Shown here: positions 1-14,074 of the stretch, one piece after another | Layout: each line of letters starts with the position of its first letter | Position numbering within the stretch: position 1 is the stretch's first letter | Virus record (IMG/VR): IMGVR_UViG_2778261358_000016 | Span: 1-14,074 of that record | Strand: one strand, 5' to 3' | Origin: a virus | Lineage: Duplodnaviria > Heunggongvirae > Uroviricota > Caudoviricetes | DNA length: 14,074 bases | Position numbers and translations under genes: made by a program | The notes under the pieces: model-generated | What the model was told of the DNA's origin: nothing | The model's input: the letters and a program-made list of their open reading frames with translations, nothing else | The model's database searches: none

Positions 1-71
1 ATGATATACATGTTGATTACACTATGCATCGACAACGATGCCACATTTTTGGCTGGTTGGCAAATCTGTCA

Positions 72-257
72 TCAGGGCGGACAACAACGCCACGATCTCA
101 TCTTTCTTGGGCAATTTTTAAGAAAATCCTCAAGGGCAAATCTTTTTGGCCTTGCTTCCTGTTCATGGTCAGGCATTTCATCCATTTCTCTTAATTTTTT
201 TTCTACCTGTCTTTCAAGTATGGATAATGCGATTTCCCGTAATTCTTCGTTGTTCAT
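72..257 (-). CDS. Hypothetical small protein (61 aa), the only leftward gene in the island; candidate regulator
   Basis: AGGAG Shine-Dalgarno about 7 nt upstream of the ATG at 257 (minus strand); divergent from the rightward operon and adjacent to operator-like dyads; no recognisable motif. Confidence 0.35.
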   Translation of the reverse strand: MNNEELREIALSILERQVEKKLREMDEMPDHEQEARPKRFALEDFLKNCPRKMRSWRCCPP

Positions 258-482
258 TGTCTACTCCTGTAAAGAAATGCGCCGTAGTTCCTCACACCAC
301 GGCGCTGATAGTTTTTATCCTTTGGGTTCTATGCCGCGTTGCTGTAATTCTTTGCGGATTATTCGCTTTATCCAGGCAGCAAGAGAATCATCGCCGTCCT
401 GTTGTTGTGCCTTTTCCATCTTTTCCCGTAAGTCAGGATCTAAACGGAACTGGAACGGAGGATTACCACGCCTTTCGTTTTT

Positions 483-543
483 GTGTATTGACACGTTAAT
501 TACACCTCATATAATGTATTTATGTGTAATGACACATTACACA
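483..543 (+). promoter_or_regulatory. Two operator-like sites sharing GTGTAWTGACACRTTA (483..498 and 524..539); second lies in a perfect 8-bp inverted repeat TGTGTAAT-N5-ATTACACA (523..543)
   Basis: Direct repeat of a 16-bp motif spaced 41 bp apart, one copy overlapping the -35 and one just downstream of the -10; dyad symmetry typical of dimeric repressor binding. Confidence 0.4.
488..515 (+). promoter_or_regulatory. Sigma70-type promoter with consensus -35 TTGACA (488..493) and -10 TATAAT (510..515), 16-bp spacer, driving the rightward small-gene operon
   Basis: Exact hexamer matches read directly from sequence; located about 110 bp upstream of the first rightward gene with a strong RBS. 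Confidence 0.5.
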
Positions 544-623
544 CAATCAACACAAAAAGCAAAGCCCCGCACTGTAGGAGCAGTAACGGGGCTTCTAACC
601 AACAACGTAAACTAGGAGCCGTT

Positions 624-821
624 ATGGTTGCCGTAAATCATATACCACACCTTGTACACACACAAACGGCCTTTGTGTGGCGTTTTCTGGCACTGAGTGC
701 CGGAGAATCTCAAATAATCCACGTAACCGCCTGGACGGAACGCGAAGCGCGTAACCGTTGCCCGTCAGGTTGTGTTGCTGTATTCGCCGCCCGTATTCGC
801 CAGGGGTCACATCATGCGTAA
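624..821 (+). CDS. Hypothetical small protein A (65 aa), paralog of the C-terminal part of the next gene
   Basis: AGGAG RBS 5 nt upstream of ATG; conserved blocks FVWRF and TEREAR...ARIRQG shared with ORF 814..1275, differing mainly at synonymous third positions. Confidence 0.55.
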   Translation: MVAVNHIPHLVHTQTAFVWRFLALSAGESQIIHVTAWTEREARNRCPSGCVAVFAARIRQGSHHA

Positions 822-1275
822 AAACCGCTTGCAAAAAATTATCACGGGGCTGTATGCTTCCCCCGTCGCCCACATGGCGACCGGGTTTAGCAGCCTGAAT
901 ACATCTGGCGGACAGCCGCCCACATCCGATAAGCGGTTTTTTTGTGTCCGTAAACCTACCCATACCCGCATTATGGCGGGGCGTAACGGGGGAGCCTTTG
1001 TGCTCGCTGGTTTCCAGATGACCAGTCTGCTAACCCTGTTACGTCTCGCCACCATGTTTAGCAGCGTAGTAGCGAGACTCCTTAAAATTCATCTGGGAGC
1101 CTTTCACATGGCTGTATCCGCACGCCCTTATTTTGTCTGGCGCTTTATGCAGTGCCTGACAGACAGCATTGCAATATTCACCGTTACCGCAGCCACTGAA
1201 CGCGAAGCACGCGCCCAGCTGCCGCACGCACATCTGATTTTTGTCGCCCGTATTCGTCAGGGGGTAGGCTTATGA
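814..1275 (+). CDS. Hypothetical protein B (153 aa) carrying a C-terminal copy of the protein A domain
   Basis: ATG at 814 overlaps the stop of gene A (ATGCGTAA); AGGGG RBS; C-terminal 60 aa align with protein A (FVWRF, VTAxTEREAR, ARIRQG). Confidence 0.5.
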   Translation: MRKNRLQKIITGLYASPVAHMATGFSSLNTSGGQPPTSDKRFFCVRKPTHTRIMAGRNGGAFVLAGFQMTSLLTLLRLATMFSSVVARLLKIHLGAFHMAVSARPYFVWRFMQCLTDSIAIFTVTAATEREARAQLPHAHLIFVARIRQGVGL

Positions 1276-1502
1276 GTCAGGAAATCACACTACAACAGGC
1301 AGCAGAACGCGCCCACCAAATCGAAGTTATTTGCGCACTGGCAGAGGATTACCCTGGCATGATGACCGACAGCGAATCAGGGGCAATCATCGGCTTACTT
1401 AAACGCCTTAGCGGTGAGGTCTGCGTATTCCTGAGCGATGAACAGGAAAGAAGAACGCTTATTTCTAACGAAAAAAAATGCGGAGGGGTACATGTGCAAT
1501 AA
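1272..1502 (+). CDS. Hypothetical small protein C (76 aa)
   Basis: ATG overlaps stop of gene B (TTATGA); G-rich RBS upstream; no recognisable motif. Confidence 0.45.
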   Translation: MSQEITLQQAAERAHQIEVICALAEDYPGMMTDSESGAIIGLLKRLSGEVCVFLSDEQERRTLISNEKKCGGVHVQ

Positions 1503-1722
1503 AACCACACCGGACGCAGCAGAAGAAGCAATGCAAATACTGATACGTGCGCTCGTTGATGTTACCCACATGGTGGAGATTATGGAGAGAAAATCACAGT
1601 CGGAGCACGACAAAAGAAAACTTAAAACAATAAAAATAATTGCCAAAAACTCGCTGATAAAAGTTACAGACATCCTTAATGAGGACATTAAAAGAATAAG
1701 GGAGAAAATTTGTGATGCATAA
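1492..1722 (+). CDS. Hypothetical small protein D (76 aa) in low-GC cassette
   Basis: GGAGGGG RBS 3-4 nt upstream of ATG at 1492; overlaps end of gene C; region about 37 percent GC by eye versus over 50 percent in flanks; Lys/Glu-rich, likely helical. Confidence 0.45.
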   Translation: MCNKTTPDAAEEAMQILIRALVDVTHMVEIMERKSQSEHDKRKLKTIKIIAKNSLIKVTDILNEDIKRIREKICDA

Positions 1723-1942
1723 AATCCCTTTTGAAGTATTAATCCACTCTGAAAACGCATTAATTAAAGCACGCGAAATGAATGCGTTGTTAATTAAATT
1801 AATTGAAGTGCCGGAAGGTGGTGAAGAATCAGGTGTATTAATGTTTGCAGCCATTCAGACATTACTATCGCCGGTTATTGATGAACTGGATAAGGCAATG
1901 GCAATTCACGAGAATAATAACTCGCCCCATACCGGAGAATAA
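1712..1942 (+). CDS. Hypothetical small protein E (76 aa) in low-GC cassette
   Basis: GTG/ATG start at 1712/1715 preceded by AAGGGAG; overlaps stop of gene D; same low-GC patch. Confidence 0.45.
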   Translation: MMHKIPFEVLIHSENALIKAREMNALLIKLIEVPEGGEESGVLMFAAIQTLLSPVIDELDKAMAIHENNNSPHTGE

Positions 1943-1947
1943 AAATA

Positions 1948-2247
1948 ATGAAACTTAAATATTCTGGCTTAACTGCCAGTGGCAAAACTCGCACTAAATT
2001 CATGCGCGGTGATATTTACCGCGACCAGTACGGCGGCACGGTAATGATTAAGGGCGTGGAGGAACGGCGCGTAACCTACCGTCGTGAAGGCTACGAATAT
2101 GATTGCGTGATGCCTGTTTATCAGTTCGACCGTGATTTTTCTCTGGTGCAGGCTGTACCGCGTAACGTTCCAACCAGCAGGGAGAAAGCACGCGCCAATA
2201 TTCAGGAAATAAGAAAGATGTTGAATGTATTCAGGGGTAAAAAATGA
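1948..2247 (+). CDS. Hypothetical small protein F (99 aa), translationally coupled to the replication helicase
   Basis: Stop TGA overlaps rep ATG (ATGA at 2244..2247); GGAG upstream; no recognisable motif. Confidence 0.5.
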   Translation: MKLKYSGLTASGKTRTKFMRGDIYRDQYGGTVMIKGVEERRVTYRREGYEYDCVMPVYQFDRDFSLVQAVPRNVPTSREKARANIQEIRKMLNVFRGKK

Positions 2248-3650
2248 AACTGGCACCGAACGTAAAACTGTTACCGAAAGATAAACACACTGAGGCGGTT
2301 ATTTTTGCGGGTGATAATGCTCACTCCTTTGCAGAACATTACATGATTGCACAGGCCAAAAAAGCAGGCGATCCCATCCCTCCGGTTTACCTGGGCCGTT
2401 ATCAGTTAAGCGAACTGGACAATTTACAGATTGTTGATGAAGGACGATACAGAGCAAAGGTCATACGCGCCGGAAACCTGGACGATATGCAGATGCTGAC
2501 CATTGCCACCAAACTGGCGATCGCAGGTGTCCGGGAAGCGCGGTTACTTTCAGAGAATTTCGAACTACTGGAGGACTGGAGCGAGCAACTACCGCGACTT
2601 AAAGAAACCTGGGAACGCGGGGAAAGTCTGGTCATGAATGGCGTAAAGCGAAAAATCACACTTCCCATCTCATGGGGTTCTGAGGGATTCGACGCGCAGC
2701 AAAGCTACGTAATTAAGGGGCTTATTCCGGCTGAATCATTATGCAGCACCTACGGGGCCAGCGGTTCTTATAAATTGTTCCTGGCTATTTCCTGGTCGTG
2801 CCATGTTGCCACAGGTATGGCATGGGGAGGCCGCAGGGTAAGTAAGGGCGCGGTTATCTATATCGCTGGCGAAGGCAGTATGGGCGTAAAACGCCGCGTT
2901 AAGGCGTGGGAGATAACCCACGACAAGGTGGTTACGGATTTGTGCATCGTTAACGCGCCTGTCTTCCCTGCATCGCCTGACTATGTGGAGCAGGTTATCA
3001 GGACTGCCGGACTTGTTAAGAGCAGAACGGGCGAAAATGTGCGGCTGATTGTGATCGACACGCTGGCCCGTTGCTTTGGTGGGAATGATGAAAATGATTC
3101 CCGTGATATGGGCGCATTTATCCAGGGGTGTGACGCGATAAAGCAGGCCACAGGGGCCACGGTACTGGTGGTTCACCATTCCGGCAAGGATGAAACAAAG
3201 GGGGCGCGAGGTTCCAGCGCATTCCGCGCTGCACTGGATGCAGAGTACCGAATCAGCCGGGAAAATTCAGACGTTACAGCACTGGTGGCGGCGTGTACGA
3301 AGATGAAAGACGCAGAGGAGCCAAAAGAGAGCGCATACGACCTTAAAAGCGTGGAGGTGTTTACCGATACCGATGGCGAAGAGATTGTGTCCATGGTGGT
3401 GATTGACGTTCCCCGCGCCCCTGCTGAACTGGAGCGCATAGAGGAGGCCGGGAACAAGACGGAAAATCACACGGCTTTATGGGGTTGTATCCGGTCACGT
3501 ATACAGCATGGTGATAAATGCACGATCCCGCTGCTACGTGATGACATGAAAAAGCTGGGATATGACACAAAACACCTTAAACGATGGTTAGCCAAACTGG
3601 AAAAAGACGGCGTGATTTGCGTCGATGGGGATGATGTTCACCCACTGTAA
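2244..3650 (+). CDS. Replication protein, RepA-like RecA-fold helicase (AAA_25 family) with N-terminal and C-terminal extra domains
   Basis: Motifs resembling RSF1010 RepA-type helicases: GASGSYKLFLAISW (P-loop region, deviant), VIYIAGEGS, VIDTLARCF (Walker B-like), VLVVHHSGKDETKGARGSSAF (HH..K and RGSS motifs); iteron array immediately downstream. Confidence 0.7.
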   Translation: MKLAPNVKLLPKDKHTEAVIFAGDNAHSFAEHYMIAQAKKAGDPIPPVYLGRYQLSELDNLQIVDEGRYRAKVIRAGNLDDMQMLTIATKLAIAGVREARLLSENFELLEDWSEQLPRLKETWERGESLVMNGVKRKITLPISWGSEGFDAQQSYVIKGLIPAESLCSTYGASGSYKLFLAISWSCHVATGMAWGGRRVSKGAVIYIAGEGSMGVKRRVKAWEITHDKVVTDLCIVNAPVFPASPDYVEQVIRTAGLVKSRTGENVRLIVIDTLARCFGGNDENDSRDMGAFIQGCDAIKQATGATVLVVHHSGKDETKGARGSSAFRAALDAEYRISRENSDVTALVAACTKMKDAEEPKESAYDLKSVEVFTDTDGEEIVSMVVIDVPRAPAELERIEEAGNKTENHTALWGCIRSRIQHGDKCTIPLLRDDMKKLGYDTKHLKRWLAKLEKDGVICVDGDDVHPL

Positions 3651-3714
3651 AAAGTGGGCGTTAAAAGTGGGCGTTAAAAGTGGGCGTTAAAAGTGGGCGT
3701 TAAAAGTGGGAATA
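3650..3714 (+). repeat. Iteron array: four perfect tandem copies of 13-bp AAAAGTGGGCGTT plus one degenerate copy; further GTGGG-core copies in both orientations to about 3895; candidate origin of replication
   Basis: Perfect 13-bp direct repeats start at the rep stop codon; inverted copy CGCCCACTTT at 3744..3753; additional AAGTGGGC/AGGTGGGC copies at 3774..3890. Confidence 0.7.
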
Positions 3715-3891
3715 GTGGGTAATTTAACTGGAATTTAACAAAATCGCCCACTTTCCCACGTGTATACATCCCAAAAAGTGGGCACTAAAAAAATACTTAT
3801 GAAACAGTACGATATAAAACCACAAAATCCCAGGTGGGACGAAGTGGGAAACCATGAAAAGTTGGTAGAAAAAGTGGGCACAGGTGGGCGC

Positions 3892-4143
3892 ATGACCAGA
3901 AAAACCAGAGATAAGACAGCACCAAAATATCGCGCATTAGACATGACAGAGCACGCCTTAAAGGTGGCAATCAGAACGATAGACCGACACGTAGGGGAAG
4001 GATACGCGAAGGAACATCCCGACCTGATAAGCGCATTCATGACCACAGCAGCGGCAAACTTTGCCACGCTGACAGAACGGGAGATCGCAGAAGCAGAACA
4101 GGTAACAACCATCAACGTTAAAACCGGAGAGGTGGAATCATGA
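3892..4143 (+). CDS. Hypothetical protein (83 aa; start uncertain, ORF is open from 3760)
   Basis: AGGTGG RBS before ATG at 3892; upstream part of the open frame is occupied by iteron copies; stop overlaps the SSB start. Confidence 0.4.
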   Translation: MTRKTRDKTAPKYRALDMTEHALKVAIRTIDRHVGEGYAKEHPDLISAFMTTAAANFATLTEREIAEAEQVTTINVKTGEVES

Positions 4144-4550
4144 CAGCACAGATAGCGGCTTACGGGCGGCTGGTGGACGACCCGCAGGTAAAACAGACCA
4201 GTAAGGGCACACCGATGACGCTGGCGCGTATGGCGGTATCGTTGCCATGTAGTCAGGCGCAGGATGGGCAGGCGACGTTATGGCTATCGGTCATCGCATT
4301 TGGTAAGCAGGCCGACTTCCTGGCTAAACATCAAAAAGGCGACGTTGCCAGCGTATCCGGCACGATGCAGGTCAGCCAGTGGACCGGACAGAACGGGGAA
4401 ACGCGGCAGGGTTATCAGGTTATTGCAGACAGCGTAATCAGTGCCCGTGCGGCACGTCCTGGCGGGAACAGACGCAAAACCACAGGCACACAGGGTAATC
4501 AGCCACCAGCGGGAGGCGATGACCCTTACGGTGACGGTATTCCGTTCTGA
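4140..4550 (+). CDS. Single-stranded DNA-binding protein (SSB) homolog
   Basis: OB-fold core resembling E. coli SSB (WLSVIAFGKQADFLAKHQKGDVASVSGTMQVSQWTGQNGETRQGYQVIADSV), Gly/Gln-rich linker and acidic C-terminal tip DDPYGDGIPF (compare DDDIPF); strong GGAGAGGTGG RBS. Confidence 0.75.
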   Translation: MTAQIAAYGRLVDDPQVKQTSKGTPMTLARMAVSLPCSQAQDGQATLWLSVIAFGKQADFLAKHQKGDVASVSGTMQVSQWTGQNGETRQGYQVIADSVISARAARPGGNRRKTTGTQGNQPPAGGDDPYGDGIPF

Positions 4551-4560
4551 GGGGGTGGCG

Positions 4561-4833
4561 ATGGTACATGACCGCATAGCGGAAGAACTCGAGGCGAAAG
4601 GCTTTTACCGGAGGGCGTCGGCGCGATGGGGTGAAGTCATGCTGCTGGTGGAGACAGACAAGGAACGGCATCAGGTTACGATGCGACGGCTGGAATGTTC
4701 CAGGAAGGCACAGAAGCCACCGGAGCCGCCGGATAACTTCGGAGACCTGAGAAAGGCAGTAGATCGCACTTATGCTGAAATGGGTATAGATGGTGTAAGC
4801 GATGAAATATGGCGAAATTACCAGGACAGATAA
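4561..4833 (+). CDS. Hypothetical protein (91 aa)
   Basis: GAGGGGGTGG RBS before ATG at 4561; followed by an intrinsic terminator; ORF-track start at 4441 would overlap SSB and is less likely. Confidence 0.45.
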   Translation: MVHDRIAEELEAKGFYRRASARWGEVMLLVETDKERHQVTMRRLECSRKAQKPPEPPDNFGDLRKAVDRTYAEMGIDGVSDEIWRNYQDR

Positions 4834-4839
4834 TCACAC

Positions 4840-4862
4840 AGCCGGAGCAATCCGGCTTTTTG
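4840..4862 (+). terminator. Rho-independent terminator closing the replication operon
   Basis: AGCCGGA-GCAA-TCCGGCT hairpin followed by TTTTTGTCATGTTTT. Confidence 0.6.
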
Positions 4863-4981
4863 TCATGTTTTGTAAATTATTTGTTCGTGGTTGTTCCACG
4901 TTGCTCGCTGACCGGAACGGCATATTTTACCCGACCTGAATCATGATTATTCTCGCCCGTGGTGCCAGGACGCTGGGGCCA

Positions 4982-5031
4982 TTTTCCCGCCTGTTAATGT
5001 GCTCGCCAATATTCATTACCAGGCGGGAAAA
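4982..5031 (+). repeat. Perfect 12-bp inverted repeat TTTTCCCGCCTG-N26-CAGGCGGGAAAA in the leader of the capsid operon
   Basis: Arms are exact reverse complements; about 90 bp upstream of the capsid start; not followed by a T-run on either strand. Confidence 0.5.
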
Positions 5032-5120
5032 CGATCGGTGCGATTACTGATTTCCTTATGAAAAACGGTTGAGTGTTTGCCGCGTCCTGGAGTTCCTTAC
5101 TTAACCCCAGGACTTTTTTT

Positions 5121-6278
5121 ATGCCGAGAATAATCGAATTACGCCAGCAGAAAACCGCCATTAAAAATCAGATGCGCGACATGCTGGAGAACGCGGAAAA
5201 AGAAAACCGCAGTCTTAACGATGCTGAGGGCGCAAAATTTGACGAATTACGCGCTAAAGCTGAATCCCTCGATAAAGACATTTCCCGCCTTGAAGCCATT
5301 GCAGACGAAGAGCGCAGCAAGCCAGGTAAAAGCAGCCAGACCACTGACCCCGCAGAACTACGCAACTACATTCTGACAGGTGAAACCCGCGCATTAAGTA
5401 CAGGCGTTCCCGCTGATGGTGGTTATACCGTTATCCCCGAACTGAACACCGAAATCATGCGAATGCTGACGGATGAATCCACCATGCGCCGCATCTGTAC
5501 CGTGAAGAAAATCAGCAGCAACGAGTTTAAGCAGCTTGTTTCCGCTGGCGGTGCGACCGTTAACCACGGTGAAGAGGGTAAGACACGCGAACAGACCAGC
5601 ACCCCGCAGATTAACGAGGTGAGCATTAAGCTGTATCCGGTCTATGCGTACCCGCGCACCACATAGGAAATCGTGGATTTTTCCGATGTGGACATCCTTT
5701 CATGGCTGACGGGTGAGATTGGCGACACCTTCACGGAAACCGAAGAAAGCGATCTGGTTGTGGGCGACGGTGACAAAAAAGCAAAAGGTTTTTTATCCGT
5801 ACCCCGTGCAGAGAAGAACGACAAAGAGCGTGATTTTGGTACGTTGCAGGTAATTAAACCTTCCGAATCTCTGGCGTGGACATCTGCGGACCCGCTGATC
5901 GACCTGAAATTTGCATTACGTAAAAAATACCGCAAAAACGCGGTCTGGGTGGTTAACTCCACGACGGCGGCAAAACTTCAGAAGGTGAAGAACGCGAACG
6001 GTGATTACATCTGGCGCGACCGTTTACAGGCGGGTGATCCTGATACGTTGCTGGGCCTTCCGGTCGAATATCTGGAGTTTATGCCTGATAACGTTATTGC
6101 CCTGGGTGACTTCAAACGCGGTTACTACATTGTTGATCACGAAACAGGTGTTCGCACCAGACCGGACAACCTCACAGAGCCGGGCTTCATCAAAATTTTC
6201 ACGCAGAAATATTTAGGCGGTGGCGTGGTGGATTCGAACGCGATCAAGATTCTGGAACTGCCACAGGACGACGATTAA
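5121..6278 (+). pseudogene. HK97-family major capsid protein interrupted by a single in-frame amber codon (TAG 5664..5666); pseudogene or suppression-dependent
   Basis: ORFs 5073..5666 and 5673..6278 are in the same frame, separated only by TAG; conserved capsid region continues across the stop (YPRTT*EIVDFSDVDILSWL...GDGDKKAKGFL); N-terminal coiled-coil delta-like domain; AGGA RBS before ATG 5121. Confidence 0.7.
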
Positions 6279-6288
6279 CAGCATACAG

Positions 6289-6319
6289 AAGGGGCTTAAA
6301 AGCCCCTTTAGTGTTTTAT
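6289..6319 (+). terminator. Intrinsic terminator/attenuator directly after the major capsid gene
   Basis: AGGGGCTT-AAA-AGCCCCT hairpin followed by TTAGTGTTTT; overlaps the protease start region. Confidence 0.5.
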
Positions 6320-6890
6320 GGGTGAAAAAATTATGAAGAGTATGGAAATCCGGTCATCGGAAATCACTACCAGCGGAGCCGGTACGCTGACGGGCTACGT
6401 TGTTCGCTGGGATAAGCTTTCAGAACTGCTATGGGGGGAGTTTTACGAAAAATTCCAGCGGGGGGCGTTTACTGAGTGGCTTGCGGCGGGTAATGACGTT
6501 CGCGGCCTGTATGAGCATGACCACAGCATGTTACTGGGGCGCACCCGTTCCGGCACGCTGAAACTGGAAGAGGACGAAACAGGGTTACGCTTTGAACTGA
6601 CCCCACCGGATACCAGTACAGGGCGCGACGTTATCGAACTGGTTAAACGAGGTGATATATCCGGCATGAGCTTTGGCTTTCGTTCCCGTAAGGATGTATG
6701 GGATACCACAACAGATCCATGCGTGCGCACCGTGCTGGTGGCGGAACTATACGAAATTACCGTTACATCCGTACCGGCTTACCCTGATTCCGGCGTGGAG
6801 CTGGCCCGCCGCTCCCTGTACGAGCAGCACCCCGAAAAAATGCCGCGTGCGGATAATCGCCGCTGGTGGGCGGATTTAGCGGGGGTGTGA
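6318..6890 (+). CDS. Prohead maturation protease, HK97 family (start may be 6333 or 6342)
   Basis: Position next to capsid and portal; motifs LYEHDHSMLLGRT and GDISGMSFGF consistent with HK97-type prohead proteases. Confidence 0.75.
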   Translation: MGEKIMKSMEIRSSEITTSGAGTLTGYVVRWDKLSELLWGEFYEKFQRGAFTEWLAAGNDVRGLYEHDHSMLLGRTRSGTLKLEEDETGLRFELTPPDTSTGRDVIELVKRGDISGMSFGFRSRKDVWDTTTDPCVRTVLVAELYEITVTSVPAYPDSGVELARRSLYEQHPEKMPRADNRRWWADLAGV

Positions 6891-6891
6891 T

Positions 6892-8103
6892 ATGTGGCCT
6901 TTCAGAAGAAAAAAAGAGCAGCGCAGCATGACGCTTGATGAGTTTATGGCGCTGGCTGGCACATCGAACACGGGGGCGGGTGAGTACGTATCATCGGGGA
7001 CAGCGGAATCACTGCCCGCCGTCATGAACGCCGTCACGGTCATCTCTGAGGCGGTGGCTACCATGCCGTGTTACCTGTACCTGGTACGCAATGAGAAGGG
7101 GAAGGAGGCCCGAGAGTGGCTTGATTCTCATCCGGTCGATCACATCCTCAACGAGCGCCCGAACGCATGGCAAACCCCCTACCAGTTTAAGCGAATGATG
7201 ATTCGCCACTGCCTGTTAAACGGTAATGCTTATGCGGTGATTCAGTGGGGGCGTGATGGTTTTCCAGTCGCTTTGCATCCTTACCCGCCGCAGTCGGTGA
7301 ACGTTGAGCAGACAGGTGAGCATAACTGGCGCTACTGCATCACTGACGCCTACACCGGAAACACCCGCAACTATTTACCGTGGGAGGTTCTCCACCTTCG
7401 TTACTCCACGGATGACGGTTTTATGGGGCGCTCACCTGTAACCATCTGCCGCGAATCGCTGGGGCTTGGGCTGGCCCAACAACGCCACGGCGCGAGCGTG
7501 ATGCGTGATGGCATGATGGCGGCAGGGGTTATCACGTCAGGCGAATGGCTGGACGGCGTGAAGGGCAAACAGGCATTAGCCGCACTGGAACGCTACAAAG
7601 GGGCCAGAAACGCCGGAAAAACGCCCATCCTTGAAGGGGGTATGAGCTATCAGCAGCTGGGCATGAGTAATCAGGATGCTGAATGGCTGGCCTCCCGTCG
7701 CTTCACCATTGAAGACATCGCCCGAATGTTCAACGTCTCGCCGATTTTTTTGCAGGAATACAGCAACAGCACCTACAGCAATTTCAGCGAGGCAAGCCGC
7801 GCATTTCTCACCATGACGATGCGCCCGTGGCTGGCGAACTTTGAGCAGCAGATAAAAAACGCCCTGCTGGTGGCCTCACCTGTACCTGGTATCCGGTATC
7901 AGGTGGAGTTTGACAGCGCGGACCTGTTACGGGCCACTCCTGGCGAACGCTTTGCCACCTATGAACGCGGCATCAAATCCGGCGTTATGTGCCCGAACGA
8001 AGCCCGCGAACGTGAAGGGCTGTCCCCGCGTGATGGTGGTGATGAGTTCAGCCAGGCATGGAAACAGGAAGTAAAAATCAGCGAGGGAGAAAAACCGGAA
8101 TGA
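6892..8103 (+). CDS. Portal protein, HK97 family
   Basis: 403-aa protein with portal-like conserved blocks (NAYAVIQ, EDIARMFNVSPIFL); start overlaps protease stop. Confidence 0.8.
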   Translation: MWPFRRKKEQRSMTLDEFMALAGTSNTGAGEYVSSGTAESLPAVMNAVTVISEAVATMPCYLYLVRNEKGKEAREWLDSHPVDHILNERPNAWQTPYQFKRMMIRHCLLNGNAYAVIQWGRDGFPVALHPYPPQSVNVEQTGEHNWRYCITDAYTGNTRNYLPWEVLHLRYSTDDGFMGRSPVTICRESLGLGLAQQRHGASVMRDGMMAAGVITSGEWLDGVKGKQALAALERYKGARNAGKTPILEGGMSYQQLGMSNQDAEWLASRRFTIEDIARMFNVSPIFLQEYSNSTYSNFSEASRAFLTMTMRPWLANFEQQIKNALLVASPVPGIRYQVEFDSADLLRATPGERFATYERGIKSGVMCPNEAREREGLSPRDGGDEFSQAWKQEVKISEGEKPE

Positions 8104-8438
8104 ACATAGGGCGACTGCGTGACAGGGTAACGATTCAGACCCTGAAACAGACCAGGGATATAACCGGCGAAATACTCGAAACGTGGGTGGACGGTCACAC
8201 ACTCTGGGCAAGCGTGAACATGATCAGCAGCAAGGAGGCCATTTCATCGGGTGCAGAACTGGCGACTGGAACGGTAAGGATATGGATACGCTACAGGAAG
8301 GACATCAACGCCACCAGCCGGATAAAGGTCAATACGGGGCCGCTGGCGGGGCGTGTACTGAATATCATCGGGCAGCCGCTGCCGGATGCCGCCAGGACAC
8401 GCCTTGAAATTCTTTGTCGTGAGGGCGCGGAAAAATGA
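8100..8438 (+). CDS. Head-tail joining / head closure protein (Phage_H_T_join-like)
   Basis: About 112 aa; N-terminal GRLRDRVTIQ...TWVDGHTLWASV pattern typical of the family; ATGA overlap with portal stop; GAGGGAG RBS. Confidence 0.6.
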   Translation: MNIGRLRDRVTIQTLKQTRDITGEILETWVDGHTLWASVNMISSKEAISSGAELATGTVRIWIRYRKDINATSRIKVNTGPLAGRVLNIIGQPLPDAARTRLEILCREGAEK

Positions 8439-8731
8439 CAGAAGAACTTATCACCCTGGAAGAAGTGAAACTCCATTGCCGCATCGATGGCGACGAGGAA
8501 GACCAGTTAATCAGCGGATACATCGCCGCATCGCTTGAGGCGTGCCAGATACACATAGGCAGGCGCTTTGATGACGGGCTGGAGTTCACGCCAGCCATAA
8601 AGATTGGCTGCATGATGTTTATCGCTCACCTGTATGAAAATCGCCAGATTGTCGCGGATAACGCAAAAACACGCGTACCCATGACGATTGGTGCACTCTG
8701 GACGGCTTACCGTGATGTGGGGGTGTACTGA
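8435..8731 (+). CDS. gp6-like head-tail connector protein
   Basis: N-terminal ITLEEVKLHCRIDGDEEDQLISGYIAAS matches the characteristic LxxAKxHLRID..D.LI motif of gp6-like connectors. Confidence 0.65.
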   Translation: MTEELITLEEVKLHCRIDGDEEDQLISGYIAASLEACQIHIGRRFDDGLEFTPAIKIGCMMFIAHLYENRQIVADNAKTRVPMTIGALWTAYRDVGVY

Positions 8732-9171
8732 TGCCGTGGCAACCATTAAGACGATGCACAGAACCAGGCTGTAACAGGCGCGTGAAGTCCGGCAAGTGTG
8801 AGGAGCACAGGCGGGCGGCATGGCGTGCAGAGGATGCCAGACGAGGACACCGCCGCGCGCGTGGGTACTCCAGACAGTGGGACAAATACCGCGCCATGTA
8901 TCTGAGTAAAAACCCGTTATGCGTGCGATGCCTTGAGAAGGGGATATATACGCCCGCCGTGGTGGTGGATCACATTATCCCGATTAATGGCGGTGATGAT
9001 GTTCTCTTCTGGCCCGAATGGAACCATCAGCCATTGTGCCAGGCGTGCCATAACCAGAAAACGAAATGGCTTGATCCGGCAACAAAAAGCAAGCGTGCCG
9101 CAGGTGGATTTCGTGAAGAGGAAGAACGGGCCGCTAACCGCAATAACTGGATGTATGACGCTGATGAATGA
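8731..9171 (+). CDS. HNH endonuclease associated with the terminase (HK97 gp74-like role)
   Basis: Cys-rich zinc-binding N-terminus and HNH motif VVVDHIIPINGGDD...NHQPLCQACHNQKT; sits immediately upstream of terS/terL. Confidence 0.8.
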   Translation: MPWQPLRRCTEPGCNRRVKSGKCEEHRRAAWRAEDARRGHRRARGYSRQWDKYRAMYLSKNPLCVRCLEKGIYTPAVVVDHIIPINGGDDVLFWPEWNHQPLCQACHNQKTKWLDPATKSKRAAGGFREEEERAANRNNWMYDADE

Positions 9172-9337
9172 GCGGGAACAAAACCGCCTTATCCGTGGAC
9201 TTATAAGGCAGCGTGACGCATGGAAGACACAGGAAACAGGGCATAAAGATAAAGCGTCAGGACGCGCAGAACGCATCACAGCGAAGCGATTAACCGACCG
9301 TGACTGCGAGGTTATGGAATGTTTCCGCAATCGCTGA
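9164..9337 (+). CDS. Hypothetical small basic protein (57 aa)
   Basis: ATG overlaps HNH stop (ATGAATGA); no clear RBS; Arg/Lys-rich; could be non-coding. Confidence 0.3.
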   Translation: MNEREQNRLIRGLIRQRDAWKTQETGHKDKASGRAERITAKRLTDRDCEVMECFRNR

Positions 9338-9460
9338 TGAGGCTGTATGACGGGGTGGGGGGCGTTTTCAGGACAAACCCGACCCCGCCGGGCACCGAAC
9401 GCCTCCTCAAATTTTTATGCACGGGAATTTTTTGAAAAATAATCTGGCGAAAAAATAAGC
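9338..9460 (+). other. Putative cos region between HNH and terS
   Basis: G-rich imperfect dyad GGGGTGGGG-N17-CCCGACCCC at about 9352..9386; position matches the HNH-cos-terS-terL arrangement known from HK97-like cos phages. Confidence 0.3.
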
Positions 9461-9817
9461 ATGGCAAGACCACCGAAAGCCCCCGCCTACCTGGATGATA
9501 TCGCCGTGAAGCAGTGGCGGGAAAAATCGCGGCAGCTTGCGGAACGGGGAGACCTTACCCCCGCCGACTGGAGTAATCTGGAACTGTATTGTGTCAACTA
9601 CTCCATTTACCGGAAAGCCGTTGCAGACCTTGCGGCGCGCGGGTTCAGCATTGTTAACAGTCAGGGCGGCGAGAGCAGAAACCCCGCATTAAGCGCAAAA
9701 TCCGACGCTGAAAGAGTGATGATAAAAATGGCCTCCTTGCTCGGTTTTGACCCGATAAGCCGCCGTAAAAATCCACCGGAAACAGAAGAAGAGGACGAGC
9801 TTGACCGCCTGGAATAA
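9461..9817 (+). CDS. Terminase small subunit (P27-family-like)
   Basis: About 118 aa starting MARPPKAP, acidic C-terminus, immediately upstream of and overlapping terL. Confidence 0.65.
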   Translation: MARPPKAPAYLDDIAVKQWREKSRQLAERGDLTPADWSNLELYCVNYSIYRKAVADLAARGFSIVNSQGGESRNPALSAKSDAERVMIKMASLLGFDPISRRKNPPETEEEDELDRLE

Positions 9818-11462
9818 GTACGCAGAAGACGTAAAAACGGGCAAAATTCCGGCCTGTAAACGGCTGAAACAGGCCGTTAAACGGTACTTTTCGGACCTTG
9901 AAAGCCCCCTTTACACGTTCGATCGTGAGGTTGTGGAGCGGTTTATTGCCTTTTCCAGGGTGTGCCCGCACGTAAAAGGCGCAATGCGCGGTAGCCCCAT
10001 TGAGCTGGAGCCGTGGCAGCAGTTCGCCTTTGCGTGCATCCTCGGCTTTAAGGTTAAGGCCACCGGACGGCGCAAATACACGAGCGCCTTTATCGAAGTG
10101 CCGCGCAAAAATGCGAAATCCACGACCGCCGCGATTCTGGCTAACTGGTTTTTGATTATGGAGAACGGTCAGCAGGATATCTACACCGCAGCGGTGAGCC
10201 GTGACCAGGCGCGGATCGTCTTTGATGATGCGCGTCAGATGTGCCTTTTATCCCGACCGTTACGCAGGCGGGTGAATATTCAGGCGCATAAGGTGATACA
10301 CCCGAAAAGCAACAGCCTGTTAAAGCCGCTGGCAGCAAAAGCGGCAACCATTGAAGGTACAAACCCGAGTCTTGCCATTGTGGATGAATATCACCTGCAC
10401 CCTGACAACGGGGTTTATTCCGCGCTTGAACTGGGAATGGGGGCGCGTCCGGAGGGGCTGTTATTTGCCATCACCACATCGGGGAGCAACGTTGTTTCAG
10501 CCTGTAAACAACACTACGACTATTGCTGCCAGATACTGGATGGTGAAGAGGTGAACGAATCCATGTTCGTGCTGATTTACGAGCTGGATGATGAAAGCGA
10601 GGTTGACGATCCGGCGATGTGGATAAAGGCGAATCCCAATATCGATGTTTCCGTCGATCGTGAAAAACTGGCCTCAACCATCCAGAAAGCGCGGGGAATA
10701 CCGTCGCAGTGGGTGGAGATGATGACAAAGCGATTTAATATCTGGTGCCAGGGGGCTACCCCGTGGATGGGTAACGGCGCATGGGCTGAGTGTGCCGGAA
10801 CGTTCACGGAGGAAGATTTACACGGCCAGGAGTGTTACGCGGGGCTGGATTTATCATCAACCAGCGATATTTCCAGCGTATGCTATGCCTTTCCGGTCGG
10901 TAAAACCATTATGCTGATTTCCCGTCATTATCTGCCGGAGTTCCAGCTACAGAACCCCGCCAATAAAAACCGCGCTGTCTATCGTCAGTGGGCTAAAGCG
11001 GGCTGGATACGCACAACGCCTGGCGACTGCATTGATTACGACCGGATCAGAGATGACATCATGCAGGACGCGGAGAAATTTCATATCAGGCTGGTGGGCT
11101 TTGATACGTGGAACGCCACGCATCTCAGAACGCAATTACAGGGGGCAGGTTTTGAGGTGGAGCCGTTCCCGCAAACCTACCTCAGATTCAGTCCGGCGGC
11201 GAAATCGTTCGAAGTTTTTGTTAACCGCAGGGTGATTGTGCATCGTGGCGATCCGGTGTTGTCCTGGTCGATGAGTAACGTCGTGATGCAGAGTGACGCG
11301 AACGCCAATATCAAGCCGAACAAGAAAAAATCACCGAACAAGATAGACCCGAGCGTGGCGGCACTGATGGCGTTTGGTACATTCCAGGCAGAGCATGAGG
11401 ATTTTGCTTTTGATATAAGCGACAGCCACCGCCAGAAACTGGAAGAATTCAGCGGGGTGTAA
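9801..11462 (+). CDS. Terminase large subunit (TTG start)
   Basis: 553 aa; ATPase Walker A-like VPRKNAKST and Walker B LAIVDEYHL; nuclease-domain motif GLDLSSTSD; GAGGA RBS 5 nt before TTG at 9801, which overlaps the terS 3-prime end by 17 nt. Confidence 0.85.
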   Translation: MTAWNKYAEDVKTGKIPACKRLKQAVKRYFSDLESPLYTFDREVVERFIAFSRVCPHVKGAMRGSPIELEPWQQFAFACILGFKVKATGRRKYTSAFIEVPRKNAKSTTAAILANWFLIMENGQQDIYTAAVSRDQARIVFDDARQMCLLSRPLRRRVNIQAHKVIHPKSNSLLKPLAAKAATIEGTNPSLAIVDEYHLHPDNGVYSALELGMGARPEGLLFAITTSGSNVVSACKQHYDYCCQILDGEEVNESMFVLIYELDDESEVDDPAMWIKANPNIDVSVDREKLASTIQKARGIPSQWVEMMTKRFNIWCQGATPWMGNGAWAECAGTFTEEDLHGQECYAGLDLSSTSDISSVCYAFPVGKTIMLISRHYLPEFQLQNPANKNRAVYRQWAKAGWIRTTPGDCIDYDRIRDDIMQDAEKFHIRLVGFDTWNATHLRTQLQGAGFEVEPFPQTYLRFSPAAKSFEVFVNRRVIVHRGDPVLSWSMSNVVMQSDANANIKPNKKKSPNKIDPSVAALMAFGTFQAEHEDFAFDISDSHRQKLEEFSGV

Positions 11463-11475
11463 TGAGGTCAGCAGC

Positions 11476-11757
11476 ATGACAGAAGCCGAACTACTGGGAT
11501 TAATCCGCCGCGTATCTGGAATCAGCCAGCAGGCTGACGAACAGACCACGCAGCCGGACAGCGTGACAGCCGAAAATTATGCGCGTGTTGTTGCTGAGGT
11601 GATGTGCCGTGATGGTATCCAGCTTAATGATGTTGATATGCGCAACATACGGATCCGCGTTCTTGAAATGCTGGCCTACAATCGCCGCGTTGAACTGCAT
11701 CGGGAGAAAGAAAAAATAACGTACCACTGGAAGAAGCCGGAGCGGTTGCGGCGGTAA
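11476..11757 (+). CDS. Hypothetical protein (93 aa) downstream of terL
   Basis: ORF following terL; its stop codon lies inside the first copy of the downstream repeat box. Confidence 0.45.
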   Translation: MTEAELLGLIRRVSGISQQADEQTTQPDSVTAENYARVVAEVMCRDGIQLNDVDMRNIRIRVLEMLAYNRRVELHREKEKITYHWKKPERLRR

Positions 11758-12173
11758 CTGGTTGATATTTTCGAAATTCGCCAGCGGCGAACATCGGGGA
11801 AACCAGCCTAACCCGTTGATTCTTTCGGAAACAGCCATTGGCGGAATCCGGCGCGGTAACTTGCTGATATTCCCGATAACGCAAAATTGCGTGGCTGAAT
11901 GAACATTATGATTACTTATGATTACGCAGATGATTAAGGCCTAAACCGTTGATTCTTCCCAATTTCCACAGACTGTGGAAGTTGGCGCGGTAACTTACTG
12001 AGATTAAAGCAAAGCGCAAAATTGCGCCGACTACATCCCTCACATGCGAAATTTTCGCAGTTTAATTACTCGCCAGTTTGATCGTTAACCCGCTGATATT
12101 TTCGGGAACCTCAATTTGAGGAAGTCGGCGCGGTAACTGGTTGATACTTTCGACCTCCTCAATTTGAGGAGGT
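11748..12173 (+). repeat. Array of diverged about 133-bp tandem units, each with a Y box (TAAMCCGYTGATWYTTYC) and an X box (GGCGCGGTAACTNNNTGANAT) followed by palindromes of unit-specific sequence
   Basis: X boxes at 11748, 11848, 11982, 12125; Y boxes at 11809, 11942, 12084; palindromes TTCGCC-N3-GGCGAA, CGCAAAATTGCG (twice), TTCCACAGACTGTGGAA, CCTCAATTTGAGG (twice, once extended to 11-bp arms). Confidence 0.7.
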
Positions 12174-12613
12174 CGGGGCACAGAAAAACAACGAATATGT
12201 TGTTTTTGGGAATGGTCATAATGACCACGCAGACCATCAAGGCAACCACAACGAACATCGTTACGGTTGGAGCTTTTACCCCACTGGGGGAAAGGTATTA
12301 CGATAATCATAACACCTACCGAACAGGTAAAACCCACCAGCCTGATTAACAGTTAACCGGAAAAAAAATCCGGTAGCCCCGTTATGGGGATCCCCATATC
12401 GACATTAACGCCCCTCATGAATTGGTGCGCTTCCCCCTGGAAAGATTACCCGCCTGTATATTTCTTGTGTCTATTTGTTCCACGTTGTTTCATACAGTGC
12501 ACCGAACGGTGTAGTTAATGGTGTAGTCAATTTGCTGTTTTTAGCACTTTTTGCAGTGTGGGTTGTTTAATTAAATCAATTGGTTGCCTTGCTGTGGTGA
12601 TAAAAGGACATAT

Positions 12614-14074
12614 TTATTCATCTTTCGGCGCAGAATGCTGGCGACCAAAAATCACCTCCATCCGCGCACCGCCCAGCATGCTCTCTCCGGCGACGATTTT
12701 ACCCTCATATTGCTCGGTGATTTCGCGGGCTACCGCCAGCCCTACACCTTGCCCAGGGCGTAAAGTATCAACCCGTTGACCACGGTCGAAAATGACCTCT
12801 CGCTTGCTTAATGGAATACCGGGGCCATCATCCTCGACCACAATATAGAGATGCTCGTCGGTTTGCCTTGCAGAAATTTCGACAAACTCGAGGCAATATT
12901 TACAGGCATTATCCAGCACGTTGCCCATCACCTCGACAAAATCGTTCTGCTCACCGACAAAGCTGATCTCTGGCGAAATATCGAGAGAGATATTGACCCC
13001 TTTGCGTTGATACACTTTGTTCAGCGCTGAGGTGAGATTGTCCAGCAGTGGGGCGACCGGATGCAGCTCGCGGCTGAGCAATGTCCCGCCGCGCATACTG
13101 GCACGATGCAGGTAGTAGCCAATTTGCTGTGAAATGCGGCTGATTTGCTCCAGCATTACCGGCTCAGCATCACTGACGCTCATCTTTTCACTACGCAGAG
13201 AACGCAGCGTACTTTGCAGCACCGCCAGTGGCGTTTTCAGACTATGGGTCAGGTCGGTGAGCGTCGTACGGTATTTGTCGTAACGTTCGCGTTCACTTTT
13301 TAACAATCGGTTCAGGTTTCGTACCAGACTGGTCAGTTCTCGCGTTGTGGCTGGATTGAGCAATTCGCGGTTATGTTCTTCCAGTTCGCGGACTTCTTTT
13401 GCCAGGGCTTCGATGGGGCGTAAACTCCACCAGGCGGCGACCCACAGCAGCGGGATCACTAACAGCAGATTGGCTGAGAGCACATAGATAAACCAGCTCC
13501 AGACCATATAGGAACTTTTTAGCTCCACCGGAATGGTATCCACCACCACAATGGTTAATTTTGGCATCCGCGATGTTGCCGGGTAGACGTTTACTGCCAC
13601 CGAGTGGGTCATCTCCGCGTCGTCATCATCTTCCCGCACTTCCTGCAACTGTTGCTGTATCGAATGATCTCCACTCAGCAAGAGGCTGGTATCGTTAACA
13701 TCCGCTTCAATTTCATGAAAACCATTCGATTTCAGCCAGTCAGGCTGGATCATCTTCATCAGCCAGGGCACGTCACGTTGCGCCCATAAAAGCTGCCCGT
13801 TCTCATCATAAATTAGCGTCATGGTGGGGCTTTGCTTGTCGATATTTTCGGGTAACTCGACATGCAACTTATTGTTTTCCCACTTCGCAAGGGTATAGAA
13901 CAGATTGCTCTCGCCACGTAACAGCCGAAACGTAGTTTTATCGAAACTGACGCTATAACCGATCAGCGCGACCATTCCGTAGGCAAGCGAAAGCACCAGT
14001 ACTACCGCAGCCGTTGCCAACAGAAAACGTACCCGCAGTGAGAGCGGGAAAAAAAGACGCAGTAATTTTTTCAT
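12614..14074 (-). CDS. phoQ: Sensor histidine kinase PhoQ (complete, 486 aa)
   Basis: Translation shows two transmembrane segments, an acidic periplasmic patch (EDDDDAE), the H-box ([12 protein letters not shown]) and ATP-binding G-boxes; C-terminus [11 protein letters not shown] as in enterobacterial PhoQ. Confidence 0.95.

Follow-up and report, generated by a model that had tools for sequence, protein, structure and literature searches.

The DNA analysed here (the window; 14,074 bp) ends at its right in an intact phoQ gene encoding 486 aa on the minus strand (12614..14074), whose start codon forms the end of the window and which is annotated as phoQ in all comparators. Everything to its left (1..12605, plus strand) is the DNA of a capsid-forming PICI (cf-PICI), a phage-satellite island, without its int-alpA left end. 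The best match to window positions 1-12700 is Escherichia coli E110019 (99.8% identity), in which the island spans 14,857 bp between its two att cores. Its left part consists, in order, of int, alpA, Icd-like genes, a RepA-type helicase, SSB and PerC; the genes for the major capsid protein, an HK97-type protease, portal, head closure, connector, HNH, TerS (P27 family) and TerL and a 93-aa ORF follow, and ~850 bp of noncoding DNA separate the 93-aa ORF from phoQ. The gene set is that of a cf-PICI, ~15 kb in extent with no tail or lysis genes, as judged from the annotation of the E110019 island and of the 37-kb locus of strain 2013C-3342 (L001) and from ORFs of matching size in the window. Two E110019 genes are disrupted, the helicase by an internal stop (6244-7650 of its locus, L022) and the prohead protease by a frameshift (L022 10305-10876); the window counterparts of both are open (helicase, 2244-3650; protease, 6318-6890). 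In 2013C-3342 it is int that is frameshifted (L001 3578-4806). Five tandem 13-bp iterons, GTTAAAAGTGGGC, lie at 3647-3711 (with further copies at 3773-3790 and 3854-3879), directly after the 468-aa helicase ORF (2244-3650), which is where the replication origin of a PICI is expected.

The cf-PICI prototype EcCIEDL933 (Alqurainy et al., bioRxiv 2022.09.08.507074) shares with this island its capsid, protease, portal, head closure, connector, HNH, TerS(P27) and TerL genes, its size (~15 kb), its integrase type and its absence of tail and lysis genes. Dependence on a helper phage for induction, and the use of that helper's tails, are described for islands of this type in the literature. The closest genome to the window is nevertheless that of E110019 and not that of EDL933: the right 9.2 kb are 98.7% identical to the O157-type cf-PICI, but the O157-type island has a DUF927 primase where the window has the RepA-type helicase (2244-3650). 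The island is, in other words, mosaic (window 1-4835 compared with L001 5546-11085), with the replication module swapped and the right 9.2 kb kept. An earlier survey had already listed a 15.5-kb EDL933 element, designated 'HNH; terL', with an integrase 97.8% identical to that of CFT073 (Fillol-Salom et al. 2018).

A reading made from the sequence alone had drawn attention to the interval 12180-12613, between a repeat array and the phoQ stop codon, as the probable island-chromosome junction, in which several palindromes could be seen but neither an integrase nor a recognisable att site. That no integrase ORF lies in the window is correct, but this is a boundary artefact. Window position 1 corresponds to L022 position 4001, 856 bp past the end of int and 304 bp past alpA in E110019; the integrase is missing from the window because the window starts downstream of int. 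The tyrosine integrase, of the EcCICFT073 type, adjoins attL outside the window and is intact in E110019 (WP_000085261) and CFT073 (WP_000085269); in island-bearing genomes int is next to roxA.

The junction can be placed to the base by comparison with other chromosomes. When positions 11750-12800 were compared by megablast with 5,426 complete E. coli genomes, every genome matched on the phoQ side, and most matched only from query position 857, that is, from window position 12606; homology confined to 12606 onward was found in ~4,700 of the 5,426. A 110-bp probe spanning the junction matched over at least 80% of its length in 595 of the same genomes, which therefore have the attR junction, and elsewhere the match started at 12606. 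Homology to island-free genomes thus begins 8 bp from the phoQ stop. In K-12 JM109 and M18, both island-free, the roxA-phoQ spacer is an uninterrupted 75 bp with a single copy of the core, GG(G/A)CATATTT, eight bases past the phoQ stop, and both 12180-12605 and the repeat array are absent. Comparison with island-free strains had been named beforehand as the test that could show the interval and the array to be native chromosome; it showed the opposite. Because the comparators match only from 12606, the segment 12180-12605 belongs to the island, which puts the junction at the extreme right of the interval. Both the proposed location of attR within the interval and the proposed integration just downstream of phoQ are thereby borne out.

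The interval 12180-12613 is, on these comparisons, the right-hand end of an integrated cf-PICI, directly after E. coli phoQ. The att core itself is GGACATATTT (attR identity block, 12606..12615), the start of chromosome homology, and its last 2 bases fall within the phoQ stop codon (12614-12616). The exact 10-mer occurs once in the window, at 12606-12615, so that from the window alone no att site could be recognised, as the sequence-only reading had stated; with comparators a clean 10-bp direct repeat emerges. It is present at both island ends in 2013C-3342, CFT073 and E110019 (L001, L015 and L022), beside roxA and at the equivalent of 12606-12615, and once in the empty site of M18. The attL copy, beside roxA, lies outside the window, at L022 position 1735 in the E110019 locus, and is likewise found in L001 and L015. 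The empty site of K-12 has GGGCATATTT instead. attB is in fact polymorphic among island-free strains at one base (window 12608; L002 3003; L014 403), K-12 having GGGCATATTT, whereas GGACATATTT is the sequence of M18 and of many others; in every occupied site examined, this position is A at both ends.

Neither the core nor the site is new. For EcCICFT073 and EcCIRM12579 the core GGACATATTT and the site ycfD-phoQ are listed in Table S1 of Fillol-Salom et al. 2018 (ISME J), along with ATAACAGCA at tqsA for EcCI042, and excision, circularisation and int-attP-dependent integration of EcCICFT073 were demonstrated in the same work. The core and the intergenic position (ycfD being roxA) are identical to those of the window, and both cores, GGACATATTT at phoQ and ATAACAGCA at tqsA, were also derived here independently from alignments. 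The junction itself is therefore not a new finding: the att core and site date from a 2018 publication, and the island family from publications of 2022-23. The CFT073 island shares with the window the integrase type and, in the right arm, the doubled motif, the IHF site and the 16-bp palindrome described below, but its cargo is that of a classical PICI, with lambda-like capsid and decoration genes and two lambda-type cos sites, in place of the HK97-like head and packaging module. A scan of the window with ARAGORN yields neither a tRNA nor a tmRNA, in agreement with the sequence-only reading, and the island does not target a tRNA gene, the target being the 3' flank of phoQ. A packaging (cos) site in the arm was also considered and rejected: the lambda-type cosN sequences of EcCICFT073 (L015 11559 and 12309) lie upstream of the 93-aa gene and their sequence is absent from the window.

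Joining the island ends in silico recreates an attP in which window sequence ...GTGGTGATAAAA runs into GGACATATTT and then into attL-derived TATCAATTAG.... The core of this reconstructed attP, TGATAAAA-GGACATA-TTTTATCA, is a pair of perfect 8-bp inverted repeats around a 7-bp spacer; inverted repeats flanking a short spacer are the usual layout of a tyrosine-recombinase core. The spacer GGACATA (12606..12612) is the putative overlap (strand-exchange) region. The island-side core-type half-site, C, would be TGATAAAA (12598..12605, plus strand), the reverse complement of the TTTTATCA that follows the core at attL, and the chromosome-side half-site, B', is probably TTTATTCA (12613..12620, plus strand), which spans the phoQ stop and last codon and matches C' (TTTTATCA) at 6 of 8 positions. 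Islands of the same family inserted at tqsA align base for base with this arrangement and have AACAGCA at the spacer position, in the same register, inside their own 9-bp identity block.

The reconstructed core is flanked by a doubled motif. The tandem repeat GGTGTAGTTAAT GGTGTAGTCAAT (12508..12531, plus strand) is the P-arm copy, and its co-oriented counterpart lies upstream of int. In the 37-kb locus L001 the motif, GGTGTAGTNANT, is confined to four places, as two tandem copies on each arm, all in one orientation; the P' pair lies 22 bp upstream of the int start codon. Measured from the centre of the overlap, the upstream pair ends 78 bp before it and the downstream pair starts at +132 bp. 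A closely comparable geometry has been described for the attP of helper-embedded PICIs (HE-PICIs), in which a tandem 11-12-bp motif is likewise present as two co-oriented copies, ~80 bp upstream and 132 bp downstream of the centre (Mageeney et al. 2023, NAR Genom Bioinform). The sequence of that motif, doubled TGTGTATTGCA, differs from GGTGTAGTTAAT; it was reported to be absent from other PICIs, and whether Int's arm domains or AlpA bind it was left open by its authors. The present doubled motif is, as far as its sequence and placement go, a variant of the HE-PICI equivalent that follows the N-terminal domain of the integrase.

What the motif follows is seen by comparing integrases. The integrase combines an Arm-DNA-bind_3 domain (PF13356, residues 8-95, E = 9.5e-19) with a Phage_integrase domain (Pfam). 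The phoQ and tqsA types are 92% identical, with 34 differences in 407 aligned residues (L015 1931-3160 compared with L003 3520-4749), of which 16 lie in the first 60 residues and 18 in the other 347, and tqsA islands have GGTGTAGTCACT on both arms in place of GGTGTAGTTAAT (TCACT rather than TTAAT). Motif and N-domain vary together across five integrase types: ...SVRHSTSGLL... goes with TTAAT in the phoQ and abgR types, ...SVRHST(S/N)GLL... with TCAAT/TTAAT in the cspD type, ...SVKYLTSGKL... with TCACT in the tqsA type and ...EIKHSKGGKL... with TGTGTGGTCAGT in the rcnR type. AlpA, which is 94-98% identical among islands with differing motifs, does not track the motif. Since the motif changes with the N-domain of Int while AlpA stays nearly the same, this co-variation favours binding of the doubled motif by the integrase arm domain over binding by AlpA. 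AlpA is an excisionase-like regulator whose relatives are recombination directionality factors, and its candidacy is one that the authors of the HE-PICI study kept open; a role for it in binding the doubled GGTGTAGTTAAT, the neighbouring TTGTTCCACGTTGTTTCA block, or both, nevertheless appears unlikely, its near-identity between islands with different motifs being at odds with it as far as the doubled motif is concerned. The TTGTTCCACGTTG block falls outside that argument: further copies of it lie between int and alpA and upstream of the capsid operon, a distribution befitting a regulator site, and it may well be a site for AlpA or for another regulator. The occurrence of doubled attP motif versions in PICIs with phoQ, abgR, cspD, tqsA and rcnR integrases, previously known only from helper-embedded PICIs, is mildly new.

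The block in question occupies 12457..12507 (plus strand), immediately to the left of the doubled motif, and is invariant in all eight aligned arms (alignment A3) as well as duplicated on the P' arm upstream of int. It contains the 18-mer TTGTTCCACGTTGTTTCA (12476-12493), of which L001 has four copies (at most 3 mismatches; 0.05 expected), one of them upstream of int, one between int and alpA, one upstream of the capsid operon and one on the P arm; their coordinates are 4891-4908 and 12476-12493 in the window and 3489-3506 and 4871-4888(-) in L001. Such a distribution makes TTGTTCCACGTTGTTTCA a candidate binding site of a regulator of the island, possibly AlpA. Duplication of the int-upstream block at 12457-12531 raises a different possibility, that the right arm is the left-end remnant of a second island integrated in tandem, and a co-oriented ~75-bp block that includes the doubled motif is indeed present on both arms. 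An att core would then be expected to the left of the block, but none is found in the window within one mismatch, and the block here precedes the core. The two-copy arrangement is, moreover, that of every island examined, the experimentally mobile EcCICFT073 included, and it fits the published two-copy geometry of the HE-PICI attP, all of which makes a tandem remnant very improbable.

Between the doubled motif and the core lies a perfect match, AATCAATTGGTTG, to the IHF consensus WATCAANNNNTTR (12574..12586, plus strand), preceded by A/T-rich TTTAATTAA. The window has this site 32 bases to the left of the core, and all phoQ- and tqsA-type islands examined have an IHF consensus at -32 or -30; its N4 positions vary among these islands and its consensus positions are constant. 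Over the right arm (12180-12620) the window differs from the closest genome at a single base, 12581 (T versus G), which falls within the unspecified N4 of this site. IHF consensus sites also make up the repeat array (11741-12180), which has four perfect and two one-mismatch occurrences of WATCAANNNNTTR on the minus strand: the array unit TAACYNGTTGATA is the reverse complement of the IHF consensus, with a different palindrome after each site. The array has the consensus at a density of 7.6 per kb, the window outside the array at 0.26 per kb.

With a probability of about 0.93, the island is a cf-PICI (EcCIEDL933-type, with an EcCICFT073-type integrase) whose right end is the P arm of attP, and whose P4-like integrase recombines attP with attB beside phoQ at GGACATATTT. 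The P4-like tyrosine integrase, whose gene lies just beyond the left edge of the window, would act on attP and on a chromosomal attB 2-8 bp after the phoQ stop, with its N-terminal arm-binding domain holding the tandem GGTGTAGTTAAT repeats ~80-100 bp to the left and ~132-155 bp to the right of the core (next to int). IHF would bend the DNA at 12574-12586, letting one integrase bridge arm and core, and strands would be exchanged within the shared GGACATATTT, most likely in GGACATA between the core sites TGATAAAA and TTTTATCA. The products that the model predicts are attP = ...GTGGTGATAAAAGGACATATTTTATCAATTAG... and attB = ...GAAGTATGGACATATTTATTCATC.... The register of the overlap, the binding of the arm sites and the binding of IHF are all deduced from the DNA sequence. 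The attP of phage lambda is the natural point of reference, its heterobivalent tyrosine integrase acting with arm-type sites, IHF bends and a 7-bp overlap. Shared with lambda are the 7-bp overlap, the inverted core-type sites, the arm-type repeats on both arms, the IHF consensus by the core and the separate arm-binding domain in the integrase. The lambda integrase belongs to another subfamily, that of the island being P4-like (Pfam Arm-DNA-bind_3), and the predicted arm sites of the island differ from those of lambda in being tandem pairs, in direct orientation, on both arms.

This model of attP accounts for only ~150 bp of the 426-bp island part of the interval. The palindromes are borne by 12180-12456, which has the IHF-site repeat array on its left and the functional P arm on its right. 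The A/T-rich hairpin AAAAACAAC-GAATAT-GTTGTTTTT (12184..12207) and the inverted repeat CCGGA-A7-TCCGG (12357-12373) are where they had been reported. The former is absent from most related islands, but a helper-embedded PICI (L013) has it, with a single compensated pair (A-T to C-G); the latter extends to ACCGG-A8-TCCGGT (12356..12374), a short inverted repeat around an A-tract. In L005, L008, L010 and L013 its right arm is CAGG, so that the CCGG pairing is not conserved while the A-tract is kept. The palindrome reported as 14 bp, ATGGGGATCCCCAT (12384-12397), is correctly positioned but really 16 bp long, TATGGGGATCCCCATA (12383..12398), with a central GATC, and derives from a 22-bp palindrome, CGATATGGGGATCCCCATATCG. 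It is kept in tqsA, yifB and helper-embedded islands, with one uncompensated mismatch in each, and broken in L011. A fourth palindrome, TGGTCAT-A-ATGACCA (12213-12227), had been overlooked. It is one of three consecutive conserved hairpins on the minus strand within 12213..12294 (12273-12294, 12243-12269 and 12213-12227), in which 95% of cells are paired across 8 islands. A Chi octamer, GCTGGTGG (12334..12341, minus strand), lies within invariant GTAAAACCCACCAGCCTGATTAA and is kept in alignments A3, A4 and A6 and in most related islands. There are nine Chi octamers in the 14-kb window; those at 11090-11097 (+) and 12334-12341 (-) belong to an inverted repeat of 18 nt (94% complementary) and point towards each other, with the 93-aa ORF and the repeat array between them.

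Set against 2,000 dinucleotide-preserving shuffles of the 434-bp interval, palindromes are moderately enriched over chance: a perfect palindrome of at least 14 bp arises in 3.1% of shuffles and a 9-bp stem with a loop of at most 10 in 3.0%, and 17 stems of at least 5 bp are observed against 6.5 +/- 3.2 expected, although the 5-bp CCGGA stem alone is within chance. This enrichment, and the retention of the 16-bp palindrome in several island types, are what would be expected if the palindromes were themselves recombination or attachment structures (integron attC-like hairpins, dif/Xer sites or IS200/IS605 ends), with the junction at one of them. Chromosome homology begins, however, at least 208 bp to the right of every palindrome, and a tyrosine integrase, with a clean direct repeat of 10 bp, accounts for the junction. 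The palindromes persist with other integrases and att cores or are broken in some islands, and there is no second copy at the left end. Such a role is extremely improbable. The palindromes that had been singled out are 200-420 bp from the crossover, and their conservation is independent of integrase type; they are bystanders to integration, in a hairpin-rich noncoding stretch common to many E. coli PICIs.

Whether 12180-12460 has, besides its att functions, something to encode is a separate matter. The fold of the minus strand (z = -4.1) is stronger than that of the plus strand (z = -3.0), 8 islands retain the three hairpins, whose loops vary, and the G-U pairs in them work only on the minus strand (read directly from alignment A7), all of which would suit a structured minus-strand RNA; a small hydrophobic, type I toxin-like peptide could be read from ORF 12085..12258, which starts MFVVVALMVCVVIMTI. 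Compensatory (double) changes in the hairpins are, however, almost absent, those in helix 3 coming from non-homologous replacement. At a permissive threshold Rfam gives no match over 11400-12700, and a scan for promoters and terminators finds none inside 12180-12613, terminator-like matches being confined to the repeat array. As for the peptide, ORF 12085..12258 is cut short by a premature stop in L010 and gives way to other sequence in L007 and L009, and every one of its differences from L005 is non-synonymous. An RNA or a peptide encoded here is accordingly a quite improbable addition to the P arm, and a protein-binding role for the stretch likewise has a low probability. Small ORFs here, a 91-aa one at 12062..12337(-) among them, were rejected as genes: the Pfam scan covered 12085..12258(-) and 12164..12349(+) and gave no match, and related islands do not preserve the reading frames, L003 and L005 having indels, L010 a stop, and L007 and L009 replaced sequence. 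A lead to the EHEC small RNA Esr41 proved unrelated, Esr41 lying in OI-43. A collection of 50,697 phage records has no match to the interval, and an invariant 21-mer scanned in 185,579 species genomes matched only Shigella flexneri, which adds no further diversity.

The placement of the junction, formerly vague, now has base-level coordinates, and the absence of a visible integrase and of a partner att site from the window is explained. Classical PICIs (L004, L008 and L015 at phoQ; L011 and L013), which have a lambda-like capsid, decoration protein, TerS or Rpp and lambda-type cos, share with the cf-PICI its integrase, att arms, 93-aa ORF and noncoding right end; the array-bearing right end of EcCICFT073-like classical PICIs is thus shared despite different packaging. 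Since right end and integrase are common to classical and capsid-forming PICIs, the integration module and the right end move jointly from one class of PICI to another. So few residues distinguish the phoQ and tqsA integrases (only 18 outside the first 60, a very small set of changes for a switched integration site) and yet their crossovers are so different, GGACATA and AACAGCA, that the pair offers a compact system for the study of shifts in site specificity.

From the last island gene to the att core, the ~850 bp of noncoding DNA contain several elements in succession: one strand has six IHF-consensus sites, with a palindrome after each that differs from site to site, and next come the conserved hairpins, Chi, the 16-22-bp GATC palindrome, the predicted integrase arm sites and a seventh IHF site. 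Such a right end, common to PICIs with unrelated packaging systems, has not been described before, and the combination of IHF sites and palindromes at a PICI right end is mildly new. That it is an organised array and not filler, forming a satellite-specific nucleoprotein or structured-RNA module, is a tentative proposal, and a rather doubtful one; if true, the organised array might serve these islands as an extended intasome, as a scaffold for replication or packaging, or as an insulator.
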